From an uncultured Deinococcales bacterium (GTDB lineage Bacteria > Deinococcota > Deinococci > Deinococcales > JAAFIG01), in assembly GCA_964244895.1 (NCBI GenBank), contig CAXTKV010000156.1, positions 1-12,892 of the forward strand: a stretch of DNA of 12,892 bases, read 5' to 3'. Position numbers and translations under genes: made by a program. Below are positions 531 to 12,528 of the stretch, one piece after another. Numbering within the stretch: position 1 is the stretch's first letter; each line of letters opens with the position of its first letter. The notes under the pieces are model-generated. The model saw only the letters and a list, made by a program, of their open reading frames with translations, did not search any database and was not told where the DNA came from.

Positions 531-2939
531 GTGCCAAAAACATACATAACTTCCATCGAGGACGGTCAATCTCGTGATGTCCCACTCTCGAGCCAACCTG
601 TGCGTGTTGGGCGCGGCGCGAACAACGACATCGTTTTCGTTTCGGGCTTCATCTCGGGCAATCACGCCCTGATCCAACCGGATGGCATCGCGCACCGCAT
701 CACCGACCTGAACAGCACGAACGGCCTGCTGTACGAGGGGCGGCGCGTCTCGAGCGTGCTGCTCACGGACGGCGCAGTGGTTCGCATCGGCGATCCGACA
801 CTCGGGAATTTCGTGTCCATGACGTACCACAACCCGGCGCTCGGCACGCCCGGCAAGAAGCTCGCGGCGGTCTCGAGCTTCGCGCTCTCCGGGTCGCGCG
901 TGCGGATCGGGCGCGCGGGTTCCGGCTGCGAGATTGAACTCGACAGCCCTCAGGTTTCGGCCTGGCACGCCAGTGTCACACCGTCGTCGGGCGGGTTCGC
1001 GGTCTCGGATGAGGGCAGCACGAACGGCACCTTCGTCAACGGCGCGGCGGTCTCGAGCCGGGCGCTCGCGGCGGGCGACGCGATCGGTGTCGGCCCGTTC
1101 CGCCTAGTGCTGAACGGCTCGAGGCTCGAGTGGCAGACGGACCCGAACGGCCTGCGCGTGGACGCCCTCAACCTCTCTCGCGCGGCCAGGGGCAAGACTT
1201 TTCTGAACAACGTCTCGCTGACCATCATGCCGCGAGAGTTCGTGGCGCTGGTCGGCGGCAGCGGCGCGGGCAAGAGCACGCTGATGAAGGCCCTCTCGGG
1301 CTTCGCGCGGGCGGATAGCGGTCAGGTGCGCGTCAACGGCGAGGATTTCTACACGATCTACGAGGCCTTCAAATCGACGCTCGGGTACGTCCCGCAGGAC
1401 GACATCATTCATCGCACGCTCGAAGTTGGGCGGGCGCTCGGTTTCGCGGCGCGGTTGCGCCTACCGCCTGACCTCTCGAGCGCGGAGATGGACCAGCGCG
1501 TCGCGGACGTGCTCGAGCAAGTGCAGATGGAACCGCACCGCTCGAAGCTCGTCGAGACCCTCTCGGGCGGGCAACGCAAGCGCGTCAGCATCGGCGTGGA
1601 GTTGCTGGCCTCGCCGAATTTGCTGTTCCTGGACGAACCCACCAGCGGTCTCGATCCGGGCCTCGAGAAGCACATGATGTACAGCCTGCGGACCTTGGCC
1701 GACGGTGGCCGCACGGTCGTGCTGGTGACGCACGCGACCGCGAACATCCACCAGTGCGATCTGGTCGCGTTCATGGCACTCGGGCGATTGGTCTACTACG
1801 GCCCGCCGTCCGAGGCGCTCGCGTTTTTCGGCGTGACCAGCGGGGATTTCGCGGACATCTACTCGAGGCTCGAGGAGGTCTCTGGCGATACCAAACGGTT
1901 GACCCAGGAGGCGCACGCTCGAGGGCTTCAGGCGGAGCTCGCGGGCTGGTGCGCTCAGAATCCTTCGCCCTCGAGCGTGCCCAGCATCGCGGAGCTGTGG
2001 GAGTGGCGCTACCGCTCGAGTGCGCCATTTCAGCGATTCGTCGCGGATCGCCAACGCGTCGTGTCCGGACCGCCGAGCGCGAACGCGAACGCCGGACGTT
2101 CGGGCGCGAAGGCGCTACCCGCGCGCCAGTTCGGGATTCTCACCCGGCGATACCTCGAGTTGTTCTTGCAGGATCGGCGCAACCTCCTGATCCTGCTCGC
2201 GCAGGTTCCGGTGGTGGTCGCGCTGCTGCTCATCATGGTCAACCCTGACGCGCTGAGCTTGACGCGCGAGGAACCCGGCAGGCGCTATGACGCCCAGACG
2301 GTGCTCTTCATGCTCGCCACGGTCAGCGTCTGGTTCGGGATCATTAACGCGGCCCGTGAGATCACCAAGGAATCGGCGGTCTTCAAGCGCGAGCGGATGT
2401 TCAACCTGCGAATCGCGCCCTACGTGCTCTCGAAGTTCGCGGTGCTGAGCGCCGTGACCCTCGTGCAGACGCTGCTGCTGGTGGCGCTTTTGGCGCTGCG
2501 CGTGTGCTACCCGACGGACACGGGGCTCTTCACCGCGCCCGCGCTCGAGGTCTTCGTCACGGCGCTGCTCTCGGCGCTCGCGGGCGTGGCGCTCGGGCTG
2601 GTGGTGAGCGCCTTCGCGGCCACGCCCGACCGGGCGATCAGCGTCGTGCCGATGCTGCTGATCCCGCAGATCATCTTTGCGGGTTTGATCTTCGAGATCA
2701 AAGGCGCAGCCATGGTGCTCTCGTGGTTGAGCGTCAGCCACTGGACGATGGGTGCGTTTGGCGCGAGCCTGAACCTCAACCGTTTTTGTGACACCCTGCC
2801 CGCCTGCCCGAACGAGTCGCTGTACGCGCACTCGAGCGAGCACCTGGCCGTACACTGGGGTGTTCTGGTGGCGTTCACCGTTGTGGGGTTGTTGCTGACC
2901 GCGATCTTGCTGCGGCGGAAGGATGGAGTGGTCGAATGA
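531..2939 (+). CDS. FHA-FHA-ABC ATPase-permease fusion (Rv1747-like, ABCG-type half transporter), 802 aa
   Basis: Two FHA domains with G-R, S-x-x-H and S-T-N-G motifs (GRGANND..ISGNHA..STNG; GRAGSG..VSAWHA..STNGT). Walker A GGSGAGKS, Q-loop YVPQDD, signature LSGGQRKR, Walker B LLFLDEPT, H-loop VTHA. About 6 hydrophobic C-terminal helices with an ABC2-type REITKE..FKRER motif. GTG start. Confidence 0.96.
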   Translation: MPKTYITSIEDGQSRDVPLSSQPVRVGRGANNDIVFVSGFISGNHALIQPDGIAHRITDLNSTNGLLYEGRRVSSVLLTDGAVVRIGDPTLGNFVSMTYHNPALGTPGKKLAAVSSFALSGSRVRIGRAGSGCEIELDSPQVSAWHASVTPSSGGFAVSDEGSTNGTFVNGAAVSSRALAAGDAIGVGPFRLVLNGSRLEWQTDPNGLRVDALNLSRAARGKTFLNNVSLTIMPREFVALVGGSGAGKSTLMKALSGFARADSGQVRVNGEDFYTIYEAFKSTLGYVPQDDIIHRTLEVGRALGFAARLRLPPDLSSAEMDQRVADVLEQVQMEPHRSKLVETLSGGQRKRVSIGVELLASPNLLFLDEPTSGLDPGLEKHMMYSLRTLADGGRTVVLVTHATANIHQCDLVAFMALGRLVYYGPPSEALAFFGVTSGDFADIYSRLEEVSGDTKRLTQEAHARGLQAELAGWCAQNPSPSSVPSIAELWEWRYRSSAPFQRFVADRQRVVSGPPSANANAGRSGAKALPARQFGILTRRYLELFLQDRRNLLILLAQVPVVVALLLIMVNPDALSLTREEPGRRYDAQTVLFMLATVSVWFGIINAAREITKESAVFKRERMFNLRIAPYVLSKFAVLSAVTLVQTLLLVALLALRVCYPTDTGLFTAPALEVFVTALLSALAGVALGLVVSAFAATPDRAISVVPMLLIPQIIFAGLIFEIKGAAMVLSWLSVSHWTMGAFGASLNLNRFCDTLPACPNESLYAHSSEHLAVHWGVLVAFTVVGLLLTAILLRRKDGVVE

Positions 2940-5635
2940 ACGCCTGCCCGTACTGTGGCACCACCAACGCCGACACCGCCACGACCTGCGCGAACTGCGG
3001 TGCGAGCCTGGTGTTCACCGACCCCGCGCTCCCGGCGGGCACGCTGCTCGACCACGGCAAGTACAGACTCGAGCGCGTCCTCGGACAGGGCGGCTTCGGT
3101 ATCACCTACGCTGCCACTGAACTCCTGACGAACGACCGCGTAGCGATCAAGGAGCTCTTCCCGAACCAGGGCGCGACCCGCTCGAGGGCGGGCACGGTCG
3201 CGGTCATCCCGAACATCCAGGCGGATTACCAGCGCTTGCGCGACAAGGCGATCAACGAGGCGCGCACGCTCAATCACCTCCGCCATCCCGGCATCGTTCA
3301 GGTCAAGACGGTCTTCGACGAGCGCAACACGATCTACATCGTGATGGAATACCTCGAGGGCGAGACGCTCGAGGAACGCTTGAAACGCGGCGCGTTGCCG
3401 GAAGCCGAGGCGCGCGCCTACCTCGTGCAACTGCTCGGTGCGCTCGAGACCATCCACGCGCAGAGTCTGTACCACCGCGATTTGAAGCCGAGCAACATCA
3501 TGCTCACCAAATCGCATGGCCCGGTGCTGATCGACTTCGGTACGACGCTCGAGGCCGCGCCCGGTCAGAAGAAAACCCTGACCAGCGTGACGCTCACACC
3601 TGAATACGCGCCGCTCGAGCAGTACAGCACGCACGTCCCACCGACCCCGATGGCCGACCTGTACGCGCTCGGCGCGACCTTTTACCACGCCCTGACCGGA
3701 CAGCTCCCACCCACCGCGAACGAGCGGGGCAGCGGTGTCGCGTTGAAACCCGTGCGGTCCATCAAGCCGGGGGTGAACGCCGATCTGGCGACCACCCTCG
3801 AGCAGGCGCTCGAAATGCACGTCTCGAAAAGACCGCAGAGCGCGGCGGCTATGCGCGCTCTGCTGGGCACACCGTCCCAGACGGTGATCTCGAGTACAGT
3901 ACTATTTGGGACGGCGAATCCGCCGCCAGCGCCGATCCCTGGATTGGCACGAACCGTGCGAAGTCCGACTGGATCGAATCAGACCAGTTCTGTAGCGCAC
4001 ACACCACCCAAGAAAAACGCATGGTGGCTGTGGTTGCTTGTCCCCGCAATCGGGGTGGGCGGCTGGATGGTGTCCATCGGCATTTTCGGCAGCTCGGCTC
4101 CGAGTCCATCGAGTCAGAACCAGAACCCGGCGGGTGGAACGGCGACGGCAGGCTGGCGACCCTCGCGCGTCGAGGTCGCCACAGACCGATTGAACGTGCG
4201 CGCCCAGCCGGACGTCAACGCGAGCGTCGTGACAATGAACGGCAAGGACTTGCGCGTCGAACGCAACGAGATGGTCAACGTCTTCGACGCGAGCAACGGC
4301 TGGTACGAGGTCGAGGCGCGCGGTCAGCGCGGCTGGATACGCGACCGATTGACGATCCCGGTCGCGCCCGAGGTGGACGCCTCAGAACTCCAGCGCTTCC
4401 TCGAGATCGCCCGAACTGGCGGGCGCGTCGAGCTTCGGGAGGGCGTGTATATGCTGCCCAACGCGCTCGATCTCGGTCAGGCGCTCGAGATCGTCGGGGC
4501 GGGCGTGGATCGGACGTTCATCGTCTCGAACGCGGTCGGCGCGACCCTTCGGTATCAGGGCTCGGGGCGGCTGGCGTTCTCGAACCTGACGCTCGCGCAC
4601 GCGGGCGGGGCATCGGCAGCGGTTGCGGTCGTGAGTGCCGACGAGATCGAGGTTCGAGATGCGCGCTTCATCGGCGGGCAAGACACGGGCACCGACCCGA
4701 GCGGCGACGAGGGTGACGGCTTAACGCTGCGCGGCGCGACGCGCGGCCTGATCTCGGGCGGTCAGTTCTTCGGTAACCGCTGGCGCGGCCTGACGATGCA
4801 CGACTCGGTCAGCGTGCGCGTGGAGGCGAGCACCTTCAAGACGAATACGGGCAGCGGCCTGGCCGTGTACGACCGCGCCACGCCGGTCGTCACGGGCAAC
4901 GAGATTTCCGACAACGGCCTGGCGGGGGTCAAGGTCTGGGATCAATCCAGCCCGACGCTCGAGAACAACACCCTCGAGCGCAACGCCAAGGGCGGGATCG
5001 CGTTCAACGACGCATCGCGCGGTGCGGCGAGCGGCAATCACTGCGATGCGAACGAGGAATTTGCCATCAAGGTCGAGTCCAGCAAGGCGCAACCCCGTTT
5101 CGGTGCGAACCCTGGGTGCGTACTGGACCGGGCCGTAAACCCTGGCAGTTCATCGCAGTCTTCGACCCTGACGCTTCCGCGCGGCCTGCGATTGACCAGA
5201 CCCGTGCAAGATCCTCAACAACTGGGCCTCCTGCGATTGTACGAAGGGGCATCGTCGGGCGGCGATTTCCCGAGCGATCAATGCAACGTCATCGATGTGC
5301 GTTTCCCATCCAAGCAGTGCAGCGTCACCATCGATCCTGGCGGTCGATACTCCTGGGGGAGCGCCTGGTGTGCGACCAAACCGGCTGCGTTTCCGGCGTT
5401 GCTGAGCAGCACGAGCTTCGGATACGAAATTGACGGAACCGCCATCCCGGTGAGTCAATTCTGGGTTGAGAAAACGGGTATTTGCCTGCGGCGACGCGCG
5501 ATCCTGGACGGGTTTCAGTCAGGTTCATCGCACGAACTCAAGCTCGTCTTGAACATCAGTCAGGACGTGAGCGACGGTACGGAAATTTTTCGTGCAGGAC
5601 GATACGAGTTGATGCTTGAGGTGCAGGTGCAGTAA
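2936..5635 (+). CDS. Hanks-type membrane Ser/Thr protein kinase: zinc ribbon, kinase, linker, TM helix, SH3b, right-handed beta-helix, unknown C-terminal domain; 899 aa
   Basis: CPYC..CANC zinc ribbon. Kinase motifs GQGGFG, VAIKE, HRDLKPSN, DFG, TPEYAPLEQ, DLYALG. TM segment AWWLWLLVPAIGVGGWMVSIGIFG (4019-4090) preceded by KK. SH3b-like LNVRAQP..GWYEV..GWI (~4170-4355). Asn/Gly-ladder repeats (GNRWRGL, NTGSGL, DNGLAGV, RNAKGGI; ~4420-5120). ATGA overlap with the upstream stop. Confidence 0.96.
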   Translation: MNACPYCGTTNADTATTCANCGASLVFTDPALPAGTLLDHGKYRLERVLGQGGFGITYAATELLTNDRVAIKELFPNQGATRSRAGTVAVIPNIQADYQRLRDKAINEARTLNHLRHPGIVQVKTVFDERNTIYIVMEYLEGETLEERLKRGALPEAEARAYLVQLLGALETIHAQSLYHRDLKPSNIMLTKSHGPVLIDFGTTLEAAPGQKKTLTSVTLTPEYAPLEQYSTHVPPTPMADLYALGATFYHALTGQLPPTANERGSGVALKPVRSIKPGVNADLATTLEQALEMHVSKRPQSAAAMRALLGTPSQTVISSTVLFGTANPPPAPIPGLARTVRSPTGSNQTSSVAHTPPKKNAWWLWLLVPAIGVGGWMVSIGIFGSSAPSPSSQNQNPAGGTATAGWRPSRVEVATDRLNVRAQPDVNASVVTMNGKDLRVERNEMVNVFDASNGWYEVEARGQRGWIRDRLTIPVAPEVDASELQRFLEIARTGGRVELREGVYMLPNALDLGQALEIVGAGVDRTFIVSNAVGATLRYQGSGRLAFSNLTLAHAGGASAAVAVVSADEIEVRDARFIGGQDTGTDPSGDEGDGLTLRGATRGLISGGQFFGNRWRGLTMHDSVSVRVEASTFKTNTGSGLAVYDRATPVVTGNEISDNGLAGVKVWDQSSPTLENNTLERNAKGGIAFNDASRGAASGNHCDANEEFAIKVESSKAQPRFGANPGCVLDRAVNPGSSSQSSTLTLPRGLRLTRPVQDPQQLGLLRLYEGASSGGDFPSDQCNVIDVRFPSKQCSVTIDPGGRYSWGSAWCATKPAAFPALLSSTSFGYEIDGTAIPVSQFWVEKTGICLRRRAILDGFQSGSSHELKLVLNISQDVSDGTEIFRAGRYELMLEVQVQ

Positions 5636-6057
5636 CGGTCATGGCAGGCCTGCGACTGAGGTTCTGCACCTCACTCTCGACAACGCAGCTTGCCCGCACA
5701 GCCGCCGTGTTCACCAAATCTTCAGCGACCCACAACGCATGCTCGCCAACACAGCCGATGTGAGGTCGTCCTCAGCTCCAGCCTGCGGTCGCGTGAGCAG
5801 GCGCGCATTTAGGGCACTGAGTCGCGGTTCACTGTTTGGTTGAGAATCACACGTCATACCCGCATCCGAGAGACCAGCCTCGCGCCCGGGGTATGAAACG
5901 AAGAGAACCCTCGTCCCTTTTGCTGGTACGACATTTTGAATCGCAGTTTTGAACTCCAGCGCGTGCGTTTTGGCAGCTCAACGAACTACATTTCGTGCTC
6001 GAGATCGTGATTGCGCTCACTCCGATGCTGATTTCGGCTGGGAAATCGACCCGTCAT

Positions 6058-6095
6058 CAAAAGTGAAGGGCAGCCACTTCGTTGTCTACCCTTCA
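6058..6095 (-). terminator. Putative intrinsic terminator of the minus-strand catabolic operon
   Basis: Minus-strand RNA UGAAGGGUAG-ACAACGAAGUGG-CUGCCCUUCA followed by CUUUUG. The 10-bp stem has one U.G pair that works only on this strand. It lies ~40 nt past the stop at 6137. The U-tract is short. Confidence 0.6.
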
Positions 6096-6136
6096 ACACG
6101 ACCACCAACAAGACCTGAGCCCTGAACAATATGCCT

Positions 6137-6886
6137 CTAAAGTGCCATTGCCAACCGGTGCAATTGCCCGGCGGCATCCTCATGAACCAAGCCACCGTGA
6201 AAACAAAGGATCGCGGACGGCTCGAGTGCTGCCAGACGGCGCACCGAGGTGTTAGCGCTGGTCTTGTCTGGGGTGGCCATATCCAAAGGACCGGTCAAAG
6301 TTCCGTTTATCACCATCAGCGCATCTCCGGCCAGCAACACCCGCGTGCGTTCCAGGAAAAAGCTGGTATGCCCAACGGTGTGTCCCGGAGTGAAGATTAC
6401 CCGAATCCCACCAGCGAAGTTCAGAACCTCGTTGTCACTCAGGGCGCGTGTGACGGGAACGGGCGGTTGGACATGGGTCCACATCGCTCGAAAGTAAGCT
6501 CGTGCTCCTTCTGGAAAGGTTTGTAGGGCAGCTTCGACATGCTCGAGCGGCGGTGGCTTCTGGGCACGTTTGCCGTCTTGGATGTAAGGAATTTCTGAGG
6601 TTGCGGCCAGCACCTGAGCGTTTGTGGCTTCAATGATTTCTGGGAGTGAACCGATGTGGTCGTAATCGTGATGGGTGATTAACACGGTTTTGACATCCGT
6701 AAGCGGAAACCCCGAGGTCAGTAGGGCAGCTTTGATTTGCTCGAGCAGTCCGGGGACACCGGTATCAACCAGAATGGGTCCGCGTGCCGCATCCAAGATC
6801 AGGGCTGGATGAATGGCTTCCGGTCCCTTCATCAGCCCTGCGGTGAGGTTGAGGTCGATCAGATCGTCATCGATTCGGATGGGCAT
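6137..6886 (-). CDS. Metallo-beta-lactamase-fold hydrolase, substrate unknown, 249 aa
   Basis: LVDTG, THHDYDH (HxDxDH variant of HxHxDH), TPGHTVGH, LLAGDAL and CFHG metal-ligand motifs. AAGGA RBS upstream of the ATG. Confidence 0.92.
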   Translation of the reverse strand: MPIRIDDDLIDLNLTAGLMKGPEAIHPALILDAARGPILVDTGVPGLLEQIKAALLTSGFPLTDVKTVLITHHDYDHIGSLPEIIEATNAQVLAATSEIPYIQDGKRAQKPPPLEHVEAALQTFPEGARAYFRAMWTHVQPPVPVTRALSDNEVLNFAGGIRVIFTPGHTVGHTSFFLERTRVLLAGDALMVINGTLTGPLDMATPDKTSANTSVRRLAALEPSAILCFHGGLVHEDAAGQLHRLAMAL

Positions 6887-6993
6887 GGTGTTTTCCTTTG
6901 GTGTTTGGGTTCAGCGGTTGAGGGCCAATGGATTGGTGTTGAACTGCGCGAGGACACGAGTGCCCCGATTTGGCTGATCCCGCTCGAGTGCGA

Positions 6994-8658
6994 TCAAATG
7001 CGCGGAGTCAGCCCGCACACCTGGTGAAGAATGGCCCGTGCTGTCGCGTAATTCACCGCTGCACCGCGCCAAGCCACGTGCTGATCGGGGCGAACCAAGA
7101 CGAGCGGCTCGCCGTAGCGCTCGAGGCGCTGACTTTCGGGGAGTAGTTCGTGCAACTCGATGACGCGAAGCGGAATGCCTGCATTGTTCGCAGCCTCGAG
7201 AAAGCTGGCGACATCGGCGTGACCATCGAATCGCAGCAAGGAGAGTCCCTCTCCAAGTTGATCGTAGAGCGATCTGCCATCCGACATCCATACATGAGGG
7301 AGCCGCGCCCCAGGATTGGCTGTGGGTTGGTATTCCCGTTGTTCTGGGTCTGGCGCTGCTGGCGCAATGCGGTCGTTCACAATCACCGGCGAAGAGATGT
7401 AGGAGTAGCCGAGCACCAGGGTAAGACTGTGAAACTCACGGTCTTTACTGACCTGAATCGTTTTTGCCGCAGCCTGTCGTGCTTGCAGCCCAGCCAGATC
7501 ATCGCCCGCCATCTCGAGGTTGCTGAGTTCGGGGGCGAGCACTTTCATGTTAGCGCTCGCCTCGAGAATTGTTTGCTCGGCGATGGGTCGACGCTCCACC
7601 TCGTAGCTCTCGAGCAGCGTGTCCCCGCCCCAGCCGTTGAGCCTCGCCGCCAACTTCCAACCGAGGTTAACGGCATCCCCGATCCCGGTGTTGAAGCCAT
7701 GTCCGCCCCATGGTGGATTCAGGTGCGCCGCATCGCCGAGCAAGAACATTCGACGGTTCCGGTAACGGTCAACCAGCAGCATCCGCGCCGTCCAGGGATC
7801 GGTTGCCAAGACCTGTGCCTTCACTTCGCCCCCGACCAAACCCGCGATTAACTCGAGCGGATCCGCATTGACGTGAACGCCATTGACGATGGCCCACCAG
7901 CGGTCTTGCATGTCCATGCGTCCCATCAATCCAGAACTGCCCGGTTTGAGCACCCAGTACTGAACCGCCGGTCCGTGCGGTTGCTGTTCGAAAAGTCCAG
8001 GGGCGCGAAAGACGATGCCCAGGTTGGGTCGCGGATCGGATTGACCCTCGTAACGTGCGCCCATCGCCGCCCGAACGACGCTTCGCGCCCCATCGCAACC
8101 CAGGGCATAGTCCGACACGATTTGGCGCTGCTCGCCGTCTGCGTTGAGGATGATCGCCGAAATCCGGTGTTCGTCCTGCTCGATGGCTTGCAGCGTCCAT
8201 CCCAGGGCGAGGTGGCAGGACGGGAGCTCGGACACTGCCTCACGAAGCACCTCTTCGATCAGTGGCTGGGCAATTTGCTGCCCCGATTCCGGCGAGAGGT
8301 CCGCGGGTTGCGGCGAGAGTCCGAAACAGTCGTGAAAACGTGTCACCTCATGACCCAGCAGGGAGGTGCAAAACACGACCTCCTGGGACCAAGCCACCTT
8401 GAGGGGTGCGACCTCCCGGATGCGTTCGGTTATTCCCCATCGGCGAAAGTATTCCATCGTTCGCACGCTGGTCGTCTTGGCTCGTGGCTTCAGGTGCGAG
8501 ATGCTCGTTCTCGGCTCGAGGATCAAGCATGAGACGCCCTGTCGCCCGAGTTCAATGGCGGCGCTGAGTCCAACCGGACCGCCGCCGACGATCAACACCT
8601 GCACCGATGCCGGGGGCTGCCGATGTTCGTTGAATGCTCGTTCGTTGGCGAGGGTCAT
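6994..8658 (-). CDS. Group A FAD-dependent aromatic-ring monooxygenase (FAD_binding_3, PheA/TfdB-like), 554 aa
   Basis: GGGPVG Rossmann motif, GCDGARS (DG motif), [31 protein letters not shown] (GD motif), and a C-terminal [20 protein letters not shown] domain. Start set at ATG 8658, which forms an ATGA overlap with the scoB stop. Confidence 0.95.
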
Positions 8659-9287
8659 AGGTTGCCCACCCTGATCGGAGCGCCTGTTTTGTCGTGAAGC
8701 TCCTCGAGCGTCACGTTCGGCGCAAGTTCTACCAACTCGAGACCGGAGGCTGTCACATCCAACACGCACAACCCGGTGATGATCCGATTCACCACACGCC
8801 GCCCGGTCAGTGGCAAGCTGCACGCCTCGAGAATCTTGGGTTCGCCCTTGGCGGTGTGTTCCATCAGCACCACCACGCGCCGCACGCCCGCGACCAAATC
8901 CATCGCGCCGCCCATGCCCTTGACCATCCGTCCGGGAATCATCCAGTTCGCCAGATCGCCAGCACTCGAGACTTGCATCGCGCCCAAAATCGCCAGGTCG
9001 ATGTGACCACCACGAATCATGGCGAACGAATCGGCGCTCGAGAAGTGACTGGCTCCCGGCAGTGCGGTCACGGTTTGTTTGCCCGCGTTGATCAGATCGG
9101 CGTCCACTTCAGCCTCGAGAGGGAACGGGCCGATGCCCAAGAGTCCGTTCTCGGATTGCAGCACGACATCGATGCCAGCGGGAATAAAGTTCGCCGCCAG
9201 CGTCGGCAAGCCGATGCCGAGGTTGACGTAGAAGCCGTCCTGCAATTCTTGGGCGGCTCGGGTGGCCATTCTCTCATGCGTCCACAT
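8655..9287 (-). CDS. scoB: Succinyl-CoA:3-oxoacid CoA-transferase subunit B, 210 aa
   Basis: [10 protein letters not shown], catalytic-Glu motif [39 protein letters not shown] overlap with the subunit A stop. Confidence 0.93.
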
Positions 9288-10009
9288 CAGTGCACCTCGA
9301 GTTCGGTTTTGGTTGGCTCGCGGACGGTTCGTTTCTCAATGCGTTTTTCAGGATTGGCATTCAGCACCACACGCTGCACAAATACACCCGGCGTGTGAAC
9401 CTCGTCCGGCTCGAGTTCGCCGACTTCAACGATTTCTTCAACTTCGGCGATGGTGATGTCGCCGCAGGTGGCGATCGTCGGATTGAAATTGCGTGCGGTC
9501 TTGCGATACACGAGGTTTCCCAACCGATCCGCCTTCCACGCTTTGACCAGGGCGACATCGGCGCGAATGCCGCACTCGAGGATGAAGGTTTCACCATTAA
9601 ATTCCTGGTGTGGTTTGCCGTCGGCGACGACCGTGCCGACCCCGGTTTTGGTGTAGAAGCCTGGAATGCCCGCACCACCAGCGCGAAGTCGTTCGGCGAG
9701 CGTGCCCTGAGGCGAGAACTCGAGTTCCAATTCACCGCCCAAGAATTGACGCTCGAATTCTTTATTTTCGCCGACGCAACTCGAGATCATTTTCTTGATT
9801 TGCCGCGACTCGAGCAGCAAGCCCAAACCCCAGCCATCCACCCCGGCGTTGTTGCTGGCAATCGTCAAGTGGCGCACACCGCTGTCGTGCAGCGCCAGAA
9901 TCAGCGCCTCGGGAATCCCGCATGTCCCGAAGCCACCGACTGCCACGGTCTGTCCGTGTTGAACGATGTCGCTCAGGGCTTCAGGGGCGCTCGAGTAAAT
10001 CTTGTTCAC
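9287..10009 (-). CDS. scoA: Succinyl-CoA:3-oxoacid CoA-transferase subunit A, ~240 aa
   Basis: [58 protein letters not shown] and VHTPG motifs. Start placed at GTG 10009 (VNKIY) because homologues begin MNKVY-like. Confidence 0.93.
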
Positions 10010-10073
10010 GAATGGATTCCAATCATGCTGCTGGCGAGGGACCAAGGTCGGTTTCCCGTTGGATTGCTGGGTC

Positions 10074-10766
10074 TCACTTTTCCGCCGCCGAGAGCAGGTT
10101 CATGACGTGAACAACAGTCTGTTGTAGGTGGTGGCGAATGGCGCTGGCCGCCCGAGCGGGGTCGTTCGCTTGACAGGCGCTCAGAATCTCGCGGTGTTCG
10201 CCATCGAGGCGGTGCGCATCCCTGGGTACATCGTTGGCCGCGTAGAGGTGCAGGTAGGCGTTCGAGGCGTTCCGAAGCTCCTCGATCATGGTGATCAGGC
10301 GTGAACGCCCAGACAGGCGGTACAGCCCCAAGTGAAACCGCTGGTTCCGCTCGAGATACGCATCCGCGTCGGTGATGGTCTCCATTTCGTCGAGCAGTGC
10401 GTGAAGCGGTGCAGCGTCCTGGGCCCTGAATTGTTCGGCGGTTTTTTCGATGGCCAGCGTCTCGAGGGCCATGCGAATCTCGTAGTGCTCAATCAAGTCT
10501 TGGGCGCTCGGCGAAAAAACGGTGACGCCGCGGTGGGTCTCTGCCTGCACCAGACCTTCGCTTTGCAAAAGCGCAAACGCCTCTCGAACCGGTGTGGTGC
10601 TGACCCCGAAGCGGGCGGCGACCTCGACCTGGCGCAGCTTGCTTCCCGCCTTTAATTGCCCTGTGGCAATCTCGCGCCGGAGGGTGGCCGCAACCTGTTC
10701 AGCCACGGTCAGCCTCGAGACTGGCACCGGTTGGGGATGCTCGATGGATACCATGGATGAAGACAT
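10074..10766 (-). CDS. GntR-family transcriptional regulator (FCD domain), 230 aa
   Basis: Winged HTH LRREIATGQLKAGSKLRQVEVAARFGVSTTPVREA. FCD features R..LE, NQRFH, EHREIL, HHL. AAGGGAG RBS upstream of ATG 10766. Confidence 0.96.
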   Translation of the reverse strand: MSSSMVSIEHPQPVPVSRLTVAEQVAATLRREIATGQLKAGSKLRQVEVAARFGVSTTPVREAFALLQSEGLVQAETHRGVTVFSPSAQDLIEHYEIRMALETLAIEKTAEQFRAQDAAPLHALLDEMETITDADAYLERNQRFHLGLYRLSGRSRLITMIEELRNASNAYLHLYAANDVPRDAHRLDGEHREILSACQANDPARAASAIRHHLQQTVVHVMNLLSAAEK

Positions 10767-10780
10767 TTTCTAAGGCTCCC

Positions 10781-10810
10781 TTGACAGATTTATTGTGTAT
10801 TATGCATAAT
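10781..10810 (+). promoter_or_regulatory. Putative sigma70-type promoter for the FAH/VOC operon
   Basis: TTGACA (10781-10786), 18-nt spacer, CATAAT (10805-10810), in the AT-rich divergent intergenic region. Confidence 0.65.
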
Positions 10811-10813
10811 ACA
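10796..10813. promoter_or_regulatory. Perfect 18-bp palindrome TGTATTATGCATAATACA, probable GntR operator
   Basis: Exact inverted repeat with a GntR-like TGT...ACA frame, overlapping the predicted -10 element, 30 nt upstream of the gntR start. Confidence 0.78.
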
Positions 10814-10939
10814 TCAAACACGGTTTCATTTCAATACGCAATCGATCGATTCGAACCCCTTTGCCGCATTGCAATCGTGGGGATTTTAGCCGTCGTCATC
10901 GCAAGCCGGAACAAACACTTGGACATTGGGGGATTCATC

Positions 10940-11872
10940 ATGATGCTGGTCAGCTATCGAACACGTGAATCACAGGCAAAGGGGTTAGAGGCACACGGTT
11001 TGACCCAGTGGCGTGCTGGCGTCGCATTCAATCAAGTCGTGATCGACGCGGGAAGCTTTCGCCCAGCGAATTCAGACTCGCCAATCACCTCTGTTCGTGC
11101 CGTGCTCGAGCGGGGACGAGTCTACCTTCAAGAACTTTGGGTCTGGGCGCAGCAACAATTTCGAGCGGAAAGCGGGTTGATGGCGATGGAAACGCTCGAG
11201 TTGGGACCACCCGTTCCCGATCCCGACAAGATCCTCTGTCTGGGCGTGAACTACCGCGAACACGCCGCCGAGGCGCAACAGGCGCTCCCCGTCGTGCCGC
11301 TTTTCTTTGCCAAGTTCCGCAATAGCTTGATCGGACCGACCGGACAGATCGTCATCCCTCGAGTCAGCAGCCAGATCGATTACGAGGGAGAATTGGCTGT
11401 CGTCATCGGCACGCGATGTAAAGAGGTCTCCGCACAGGATGCGCTCGAGTACGTGGCGGGGTACACGATCATCAACGACATCAGCGCCCGCGACGTGCAA
11501 CTGCAAACCAGTCAATGGACGGCGGGCAAGGCGTTGGATACCTTCGCACCGATGGGACCGGGGATCATTCCAGCCTCCGCGATTCCCGATCCTCAGGTGC
11601 TCGCACTGACGACCCGAGTCAACGGTGTGGTGGTTCAGCAAGACAGCACCGCCAACATGGTCTTTTCGGTGACGCACGCCATCTCGTTCCTGAGTTCGCT
11701 GATGACCCTCGAGCCCGGCGACATCATCGCCACAGGCACACCTTCCGGCGTCGGTTTCAAGCGCACTCCGCCGTTGTTCCTGAAGGACGGCGACGTGACA
11801 GAGGTGGAAATCGAGGGTATCGGAAAGATCAGCAACCCAGTGGTGACCTCGCGCTCGAGCCGTGCCGACTAA
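10940..11872 (+). CDS. Fumarylacetoacetate hydrolase (FAH) family protein, ~310 aa
   Basis: KILCLGVNYREH, FFAKF, DYEGELAVVIG, NDISARD, WTAGKALDTFAPMGP, GDIIATGTPSGVG. Start set at ATG 10940 (or 10943) after a GGGGGA RBS. Confidence 0.95.
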   Translation: MMLVSYRTRESQAKGLEAHGLTQWRAGVAFNQVVIDAGSFRPANSDSPITSVRAVLERGRVYLQELWVWAQQQFRAESGLMAMETLELGPPVPDPDKILCLGVNYREHAAEAQQALPVVPLFFAKFRNSLIGPTGQIVIPRVSSQIDYEGELAVVIGTRCKEVSAQDALEYVAGYTIINDISARDVQLQTSQWTAGKALDTFAPMGPGIIPASAIPDPQVLALTTRVNGVVVQQDSTANMVFSVTHAISFLSSLMTLEPGDIIATGTPSGVGFKRTPPLFLKDGDVTEVEIEGIGKISNPVVTSRSSRAD

Positions 11873-11937
11873 AGACAGCTGCTTCAAACTTCTCGAGGCG
11901 GATCGGTTGTGCAAGATGATCTTGGAGGAGAACTAAA

Positions 11938-12528
11938 ATGTCTGACAGCTCAACAGTTCATCGCCCCACTTTTCACCACATCAACCTCAAGACGCTCCGA
12001 ATACAAGCATTAATTGATTGGTACGGAACCGTCTTGGGAATGAAACCAAACTTCCAGTTTCCGGGTGGAGCCTGGCTGACCAACGACGAGGCGAACCACC
12101 GCATCGCCCTGCTGACCTCCCCTCATTTGCGCGAAGATCCCGATAAGCAAAAGCACACCGGGATGCACCACAGTGCCTTCGAGTACGCCAGCATGGGCGA
12201 ATTGCTCGAGACTTACCTGCGCCTGAAAGCGTTGGGCATCGAGCCGCACGCCTGCCTCGACCACGGCATGACCACCTCGTACTATTACGCCGACCCAGAC
12301 GGTAACAGCGTCGAGTTGCAATCGGACAACTTTGGAAGCTGGCAGGAATCGGGCGAGTTCATGCGAAATACCGCAGCGTTCGCCGCCAACCCCATCGGAA
12401 TGCCCATCGATCCGGCACAGATGGCGCAGGCGTATCGGGCTGGAGCGTCATTTGCAGAACTTCACACGCGAGCCTACGCGGGCGAGTTCCAGCCGTCCAG
12501 CCCGTTGGATTTGCACGTGCCGCTTTGA
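11938..12528 (+). CDS. VOC-superfamily protein, single-domain extradiol ring-cleavage dioxygenase-like, 196 aa
   Basis: HHINLKT, NHRIAL, GMHHSAF, DHGMTTSYYYADPDGNSVELQ give the His/His/Glu metal ligands and the catalytic His/Tyr pattern. Strong GGAGGAG RBS at 11924-11930. Confidence 0.88.
   Translation: MSDSSTVHRPTFHHINLKTLRIQALIDWYGTVLGMKPNFQFPGGAWLTNDEANHRIALLTSPHLREDPDKQKHTGMHHSAFEYASMGELLETYLRLKALGIEPHACLDHGMTTSYYYADPDGNSVELQSDNFGSWQESGEFMRNTAAFAANPIGMPIDPAQMAQAYRAGASFAELHTRAYAGEFQPSSPLDLHVPL

Follow-up and report, generated by a model that had tools for sequence, protein, structure and literature searches.

CTCGAG, a densely iterated palindrome conserved as an exact six-base word in a family of Deinococcales

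The palindrome CTCGAG occurs 66 times in a stretch of 12,892 nucleotides (hereafter the window) from the genome of an uncultured Deinococcales bacterium (G000), and an earlier note made from the letters alone had compared it to HIP1, the highly iterated palindrome of cyanobacteria. The window is a mere sample of a genome-wide pattern: in the family to which the bacterium belongs (f1), CTCGAG is kept and gained as an exact six-base match. Tentatively, and with confidence that falls somewhat short of even, we interpret CTCGAG as a self-recognition word that would put donor strands at an advantage when DNA is taken up by transformation or recombines, i.e., as a case of molecular drive.

Results

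Abundance in the window, the genome, and the family

A recount of the window confirmed the 66 exact copies of the earlier note, spread over positions 587 to 12210, and its estimate of about 15-fold over a zero-order expectation of about four is close to the values computed here (15.7-fold; 4.2 expected at 60.4% GC). Relative to 200 dinucleotide shuffles of the window (mean 5.30, standard deviation 2.31, maximum 12), none of which reached 66, the excess is 12.5-fold, and the permuted hexamers GAGCTC and GTCGAC, which the note had named for comparison, occur three times and once, respectively. By codon phase, 43 of the 66 sites are read as CTC-GAG, 18 as nnC-TCG-AGn, and two as nCT-CGA-Gnn, while three are intergenic.

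In G000 as a whole (5.12 Mb, 62.7% GC, 91% complete by marker genes), CTCGAG is the commonest hexamer, with 21,883 sites and observed-to-expected ratios of 12.7 (order 0) and 9.8 (order 2). Most other GC-rich palindromes are avoided, such as CGGCCG (30 sites) and CCCGGG (60 sites), and CGATCG is depleted. No conserved flank, flanking preference, or longer consensus was found around CTCGAG in G000. An artefact of the assembly or of this one contig, which the note had named as a possible undoing of its claim, is ruled out by the presence of CTCGAG on all 328 contigs (1.59–9.07 per kb) and its enrichment in 18 of 18 relatives.

All 19 genomes of f1 carry 4.3–6.8 CTCGAG per kb (the 18 relatives of G000 4.6–6.8), i.e., one site per 150 to 230 bases, and this density is stable from about 46% to 63% GC. 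With densities of the family genomes computed from rounded genome sizes, the other families range from 0.03–0.27 sites per kb in f3 through 0.6–2.0 in f2 and 0.9–2.3 in f5 to 1.7–2.9 in f4, which makes a natural gradient from the Deinococcus-like genomes (0.03–0.27) over the sister families (0.6–2.9) to f1. Outside the Deinococcota, the median was 0.19 per kb over 78 of 80 recA loci, those longer than 4 kb; these outgroup loci came from a RecA scan of named genomes that returned no member of f1. Allowing for codon usage, and in small samples, the odds that Leu-Glu is written CTCGAG are 9–90 in f1, 1.1–4.7 in f2, f4, and genus g13, 0.8 in f3, and 0.6 in genus g9.

The earlier note had mentioned the Deinococcota as a group in which some genomes may show this enrichment, and that the host belongs to them is borne out by both the RecA tree and the RecA structure match. 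In the tree, f1 and f3 group together (support 0.995), a named Trueperaceae locus falls with f2, and the best single-chain PDB match of the G000 RecA is 1xp8, which we take to be the RecA of Deinococcus radiodurans. The labels Deinococcus-like (f3) and Thermus-like (g9) are our reading of the tree, genome size, and gene content.

Viral contigs were sampled as 131 loci from three of the 64 parts of the collection. Most of the CTCGAG-dense ones are GC-rich and also high in GAGCTC, and the ten viral loci tested gave no match above 38% to G000 proteins. The contigs L409/L410 and L425 resemble the f1 signature (5–6 CTCGAG per kb, GAGCTC 0–3); L410 and L425 gave no protein match to G000.

Losses and gains in related species

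Since G000 lacks a congener, conservation was measured in six species of the f1 genus g4, which are about 86% identical. Aligned CTCGAG words were identical in 84–89% of cases versus 45–49% for all hexamers, and CTCGAG ranked first in all five g4 pairs; the conservation in orthologues of relatives that the note had proposed to look for is thus present. For the analysis of losses, 135 of 152 g4 genes passed the frame check, giving 76 kb with three or more species, and changes were polarised on an assumed star tree. Synonymous losses of CTCGAG numbered 73, versus an expectation of 551 derived from identical codon changes at other places and of 460–481 under stricter backgrounds, a ratio of 0.13–0.16, compared with 0.86 for all other words pooled. 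Gains numbered eight versus 2.6 expected (p=0.005), and conserved one-off words able to convert synonymously are rare (48 opportunities). Because loss is suppressed, a force must act on the exact word, and neutral replenishment is excluded. The genome-wide process that the earlier note had proposed, working on the word as DNA, is supported. A gain rate after gene transfer was out of reach, the closest homologues being 74–84% identical and too distant for use.

Transition losses exceed transversion losses

The suppression of loss is uneven. In g4, transversions removed CTCGAG four times versus 83–144 expected (ratio 0.03–0.05) and transitions 69 times versus 332–407 expected (ratio 0.17–0.21), a difference with p=0.003 in the stricter model. 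Enrichment odds in this genus, 73 for Leu-Glu and about 98 between genes, correspond to a bias near S=4.3–4.6, and a symmetric bias at such 73–98-fold enrichment predicts a loss ratio near 0.05; transversions fit this prediction, whereas transitions are three to four times too frequent.

Counts of one-off words in g4 intergenic DNA agree independently with the transition-biased losses. The transition neighbours occur 83 times versus 23.6 expected (TTCGAG 30 versus 6.9, CCCGAG 25 versus 3.6, CTTGAG 28 versus 13.1), and the six transversion neighbours 23 times versus 27.2. The excess of transition neighbours is repeated in a small sample of genus g5 and is weak in g3 (45 versus 29); in G000, transition neighbours are raised 2.0–3.4-fold. 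These neighbours are themselves unconserved (30 losses versus 32.1 expected), so they look like decay products rather than weak sites; the other one-off words are near background, at low counts. Nor are the transition neighbours consistently favoured in coding DNA, where the high odds of TTCGAG likely reflect avoidance of TTCGAA. The second and fifth positions (T2/A5) form the leakiest pair, with 12 events versus 18.4 expected, a figure that depends on the background chosen.

Coding and intergenic sites

A self-trained model called 4,534 genes in G000, of which the 4,144 of at least 300 nt were used. Coding sites number 11,132 in the Leu-Glu frame and 818 and 3,232 in the other two, versus 3,099, 64, and 449 after synonymous shuffling, and where the protein permits the word, the odds over free codon usage are 12.7, 20.7, and 11.2. 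The excess therefore survives, in every frame, the codon-preserving null under which the note had allowed that it might vanish. Repeat-free intergenic DNA is richer in CTCGAG than genes (5.98 versus 3.77 per kb) and is enriched 19-fold over zero order and 22.9-fold over a trinucleotide log-linear model.

Leu-Glu is the top dipeptide of G000, with an observed-to-expected ratio of 2.11, similar to 2.12 in the one-contig genome G006 (94% complete by markers) and 2.29 in g4, and versus 0.94 in the outgroup loci. This doubling implies that CTCGAG has changed the proteins, as is the case for uptake sequences, which double the peptides that they encode (PMC2817400; here and below, statements on cited papers refer to the accessible portions of each). 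In the raw data, Leu-Glu is used less close to other CTCGAG sites (0.47 to 0.79), but this is mostly due to Leu-Glu-rich proteins, and the residual effect is small, at 0.059 log-odds per doubling of the distance to non-Leu-Glu sites (z=5.1).

G000 also holds a second dispersed family, not found in the window, with the core ACGGTGTT (e.g., L506:241-480 and L507:2000-2300). It comprises 2,926 cores, with 2,614 of 2,915 outside called genes, and its unit is palindromic and forms inverted pairs with a constant spacing of 13 or 38 bp.

Spacing and origin

The sites lie close to independently of one another, with nearly site-autonomous spacing: the coefficient of variation of the gaps is 0.962 versus 1.005 and 0.986 in two permutation nulls, and gaps over 800 bp number 576 versus 662 and 623. 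The gaps show no signal at 10–11 bp, as judged by eye. Over the 400 kb of G006 analysed, about 8% of its length, no periodicity peak rose above the null maximum. A Dam-like cluster at the origin, of the type formed by CTCGAG in Nocardia, was looked for in five f1 genomes: in five of five, no dnaA/oriC cluster of the word was found, and regions with DnaA-box clusters hold 0–3 sites per 500 bp, at or below background.

Sites and host genes in the window

The features of the window are as follows, with the strand given where there is one. The frames that the earlier note had read at 587, 1125, 1918, and 11358, its three non-coding copies (all outside open reading frames), and both of its tandems were found at the positions it gave.

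587..12210: the 66 scattered copies of CTCGAG (5.1 per kb), which sample the motif as it occurs genome-wide
587..592: nnC-TCG-AGn site (Leu-Ser-Ser) in the FHA/ABC gene; the window has 18 sites in this frame
1118..1130: tandem pair CTCGAGGCTCGAG (Gly-Ser-Arg, then Leu-Glu), sites at 1118 and 1125
1862..1874: tandem pair CTCGAGGCTCGAG (Tyr-Ser-Arg, then Leu-Glu), sites at 1862 and 1869
1918..1923: nCT-CGA-Gnn site (Ala-Arg-Gly), which uses the rare CGA codon
11358..11363: nCT-CGA-Gnn site (Pro-Arg-Val)
5998..6003: intergenic site
6983..6988: intergenic site
11892..11897: intergenic site
531..2939, + strand: host gene with two FHA domains and an ABC transporter (context only)
2936..5635, + strand: host gene for a Ser/Thr kinase with SH3 and beta-helix domains (context only)
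6137..12528: catabolic cluster of an MBL-fold protein, an FAD monooxygenase, two CoA-transferase subunits, GntR, an FAA hydrolase, and a VOC protein (context only)

The genes are ordinary, and in the catabolic cluster CTCGAG is as dense as in the rest of the genome. The named matches of the VOC protein lie in Ktedonobacteraceae and other Chloroflexota (about 70–77% identity), which suggests an old transfer. Positions 11-514 hold an AT-rich open reading frame of 167 aa with no Pfam match and no CTCGAG site.

Methyltransferases and restriction systems

The link to a DNA methyltransferase that the earlier note had drawn has so far found no support in f1. No methyltransferase common to the family was found in PF01555, PF00145, PF07669/PF12950, or PF02086, a search that an unrecognised enzyme family would escape and in which clustering covered 30 loci in each of two sets, 20 in another, plus some, rather than every match. 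The 19 f1 genomes gave only weak partial matches, and no orthologue, to M.TaqI-like or XhoI-linked enzyme types, and none has an XhoI-family nuclease. G000 encodes a beta-class enzyme with a nuclease, a D12 enzyme with a NotI-family nuclease, HsdM, a PglX-like protein, and a DUF6094 protein, and no C5 methyltransferase; G006 encodes a C5 enzyme, HsdM, a Type ISP protein, and two D12 enzymes. The two genomes have no Type II methyltransferase in common. A methyltransferase motif match at C158 proved to be an aconitase.

The sister families carry an M.TaqI-like enzyme in four genomes and beta-class enzymes beside XhoI-family nucleases, all of predicted specificity. At L501 in genome G031, an XhoI-family nuclease gene with internal stops stands beside an intact gamma-class methyltransferase, of which g13 has a second copy; to judge from these genes, a restriction system may here be turning into an orphan methyltransferase. 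Active orphan enzymes that place N6-methyladenine (m6A) in CTCGAG are reported from Marinithermus hydrothermalis, Meiothermus ruber, and M. chliarophilus (Blow et al., PMC4752239). Several unrelated CTCGAG-type enzymes occur in mildly enriched families, which suggests that methylation may protect sites that are already abundant and not be the reason for their abundance.

Further systems were seen in f1. An orphan adenine methyltransferase of the D12 type, about 282 aa long and similar to cyanobacterial and phage adenine methylases, occurs in G006 (L556:6395-7243) and six other genomes (seven of the 18 relatives), and not in G000. At L548:4685-6612 (G006) and L549:3236-5172 (G003), a SacI-family nuclease comes directly after a D12 methyltransferase in the listed order, with D12 matches of similar size in about seven f1 genomes, again not in G000; this pair would explain the near-absence of GAGCTC in the f1 relatives (0–161 sites versus 568 in G000). 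The D12 and NotI-family pair of G000 lies on C6 (L036:1273-3185), and its target may be CGGCCG, the most avoided hexamer of the genome. In regions L248-L258 of G003, GGCC stands at 0.01 of expectation, which matches the many C5 methyltransferases of g4 and g5. The mobile region on C50 of G000 (L503:2128-13148) holds a DUF6094 methyltransferase, a helicase, and what is presumably a three-gene ABC-3C defence system, and along this contig CTCGAG varies from 1 to 12 per kb.

Competence and recombination genes

ComEC, ComEA-type HhH proteins, and MutL were found in all five f1 genomes tested, and G000 has pilin-like open reading frames. In G000, comEC (C24:15913-19151) and the best comEA-like match (C225:594-779) lie on different contigs, with a fragment upstream of comEC that we take to be transposase-like; in G002, G003, and G006, the two genes are adjacent. 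An AddAB-like pair is present in G000 (C128 and C123) and throughout f1, f2, f4, and f5. The AddB-like gene, called from sub-threshold Pfam matches together with adjacency to an AddA-like helicase, was found in G000 and 17 of its 18 relatives, the eighteenth having the AddA-like gene, and in none of six Deinococcus-like (f3) genomes with the query used. AddAB is reported to be absent from Deinococcus and to act strongly on incoming DNA in Thermus (PMC9751324, PMC11143384).

Discussion

In the explanation that we favour tentatively, a host protein would read CTCGAG on incoming or sister DNA, and the strand carrying it would be favoured in homologous recombination. Where CTCGAG meets a one-off allele in a heteroduplex of transformation or gene conversion, the CTCGAG strand would then more often be the donor, and MutS/MutL repair would reject donor transitions best, so that TTCGAG, CCCGAG, and CTTGAG would face a weaker drive than the six transversion neighbours do. 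A donor-strand advantage opposed by mismatch repair predicts the observed leak because transitions are low-efficiency markers in transformation, as reported for pneumococcus, where mismatch repair is the cause (PMC3375284). Candidate readers would be the AddAB helicase-nuclease, in a Chi-like role, or the competence and uptake machinery; HIP1 is reported to raise transformation in a manner reminiscent of Chi (10.1101/2024.09.10.611283).

Several observations weigh against this explanation. No reader protein was found, and a bias in uptake or recombination is something that we infer. With one site per 200 bp, uptake at the level of fragments should be saturated, which requires a local effect. 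The Chi words known so far are asymmetric, bound to open reading frames, and largely explained by codon usage (10.1101/2021.07.08.451572), and the pneumococcal study saw no effect of mismatch repair in its own multi-SNP transformations (PMC3375284). The leak would look the same if the motif were simply hypermutable by transition, for instance because of a methylation that escaped recognition, and T2/A5 is the leakiest pair; in G000, the transversion neighbours are slightly raised too (1.3–1.6-fold). The conservation data come from relatives rather than from the singleton genus of G000, and the polarisation rests on the star tree. AddAB does not predict the motif: the Thermus-like g9 has AddAB yet CTCGAG odds of 0.6, one f3 genome has a divergent AddA-like pair yet 0.08 sites per kb, and the contrast with Deinococcus is a single phylogenetic event.

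The word could instead be the binding site of an abundant protein that organises or protects the chromosome, under weak true selection at each site, a role that Xu et al. argued for HIP1 (PMC5861425); we regard this as possible, if on the unlikely side. Selection would account equally well for the suppressed loss, the excess of gains, and the higher intergenic density, and the spacing is slightly more even than chance. Plain selection, however, treats transitions and transversions alike unless the transition neighbours are partly functional, and these are unconserved and lack consistent enrichment in coding DNA; there is also no periodicity in the 400 kb of G006, no 10–11 bp signal by eye, no flank preference, and no candidate protein. 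Somewhat less probable, and in our view unlikely, is that CTCGAG is marked by a methyltransferase, with methyl-directed repair retaining the strand that bears the mark (Elhai's ratchet), or that methylation makes the sites prone to transition while they are retained for strand discrimination. The presence of MutL agrees with such a process, as do the orphan m6A enzymes of Marinithermus and Meiothermus, the sister families that combine mild enrichment (odds 1.8–4.7 in several) with M.TaqI-like or XhoI-linked methyltransferases, and the leakiest pair, which includes the adenine methylated by those orphan enzymes. Against it stand the lack of f1 orthologues of either enzyme type, of an XhoI-family nuclease in the 19 genomes, and of a Type II methyltransferase common to G000 and G006. 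A repair ratchet should moreover protect transitions most, because mismatch repair handles transitions best, and the reverse was seen; the f1 density is also four to seven times the one site per kb at which Elhai's model saturates (PMC4390886). Of the two, a recombination drive accounts better for the transition/transversion pattern than a ratchet of methyl-directed repair does.

It is highly improbable that the excess arises secondarily, from codon or protein composition, a dispersed repeat, or a neutral mutational hotspot. The Leu-Glu frame does hold 73% of coding sites (11,132/15,182), and 377 sites adjoin the second, intergenic repeat family, but synonymous shuffles fall far short in all frames, intergenic DNA stays 19–23-fold enriched after repeats are masked, density holds across the range of GC content, and loss is suppressed about six-fold, beyond what replenishment alone gives. 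A codon, protein, or hotspot cause is thereby refuted by the shuffles and the conservation test, and spread by the repeat is rejected on the small number of adjoining sites and the masking.

The recombination drive could take a more specific form, which we consider unlikely: the AddAB of Deinococcales would recognise CTCGAG as a Chi-like mark of self that is palindromic and independent of methylation. In the family that is sister to Deinococcus, the drive of this word would have placed a site every 150–230 bases and raised a dipeptide two-fold, and Deinococcus would have lost the word along with AddAB. If true, a Chi-like AddAB mark would be a concrete mechanism for highly iterated palindromes, and the transition leak would be a signature of recombination drive legible from sequence only. 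Genomes already available suffice to look for the asymmetry between transitions and transversions in HIP1 and in uptake sequences, and cultured, competent relatives with mild enrichment permit direct assays. HIP1 has stayed unexplained in cyanobacteria for three decades, without a counterpart in another phylum in the literature examined; an independent case that is denser and in which no shared methyltransferase was found separates abundance from methylation. No report of CTCGAG over-abundance was found in the literature searched, with subscription papers, REBASE, and bioRxiv supplements outside its reach.

Comparison with known systems

Uptake words in Neisseria and Pasteurellaceae are longer than CTCGAG and non-palindromic. 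Like them, CTCGAG has thousands of dispersed copies and a doubled peptide in a host with competence genes (PMC2817400); unlike them, it is denser, and an uptake bias in its favour is hypothetical. With Chi systems, f1 shares an AddAB-like pair. Chi words are asymmetric, oriented with replication, and largely codon-explained (10.1101/2021.07.08.451572), whereas CTCGAG is palindromic, richest between genes, and 10–100-fold above codon expectation; the accessible portions of the Thermus AddAB literature name no Chi word for Thermus (PMC9751324, PMC11143384).

The orphan methyltransferases M.Mhy14884I, M.Mru1279II, and M.Mch9957IV recognise the same word in the same order as f1 and in mildly enriched families (PMC4752239), and enzymes of this Marinithermus or Meiothermus type were not found in f1. 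The same survey describes CTCGAG clusters at the origin in Nocardia, of which the five f1 genomes show no equivalent at dnaA, and in its accessible portions it does not report a genome-wide over-abundance of the word.

The closest parallel is the one drawn by the earlier note, and it holds in abundance, frame spread, and conservation. Like HIP1 (GCGATCGC) and the alternate highly iterated palindromes, CTCGAG is a short palindrome that is hyper-abundant genome-wide, in all frames and between genes (PMC4390886, PMC5861425, PMC13756078), conserved beyond codon usage, and present clade-wide. According to Xu et al., high HIP1 abundance is not seen outside cyanobacteria (PMC5861425). CTCGAG differs in being a six-base word in another phylum rather than GCGATCGC in a cyanobacterium, in reaching 4,300–6,800 sites per Mb in f1 versus 300–2,700 for HIP1, in having no family-wide cognate methyltransferase that we could find, and in its one-off variants, which are unconserved whereas HIP1* is conserved; no long-range periodicity was seen in the 400 kb of G006 analysed. 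CTCGAG works like HIP1 yet is not HIP1: it is another word in another phylum, denser, with no shared methyltransferase found and with unconserved neighbours.

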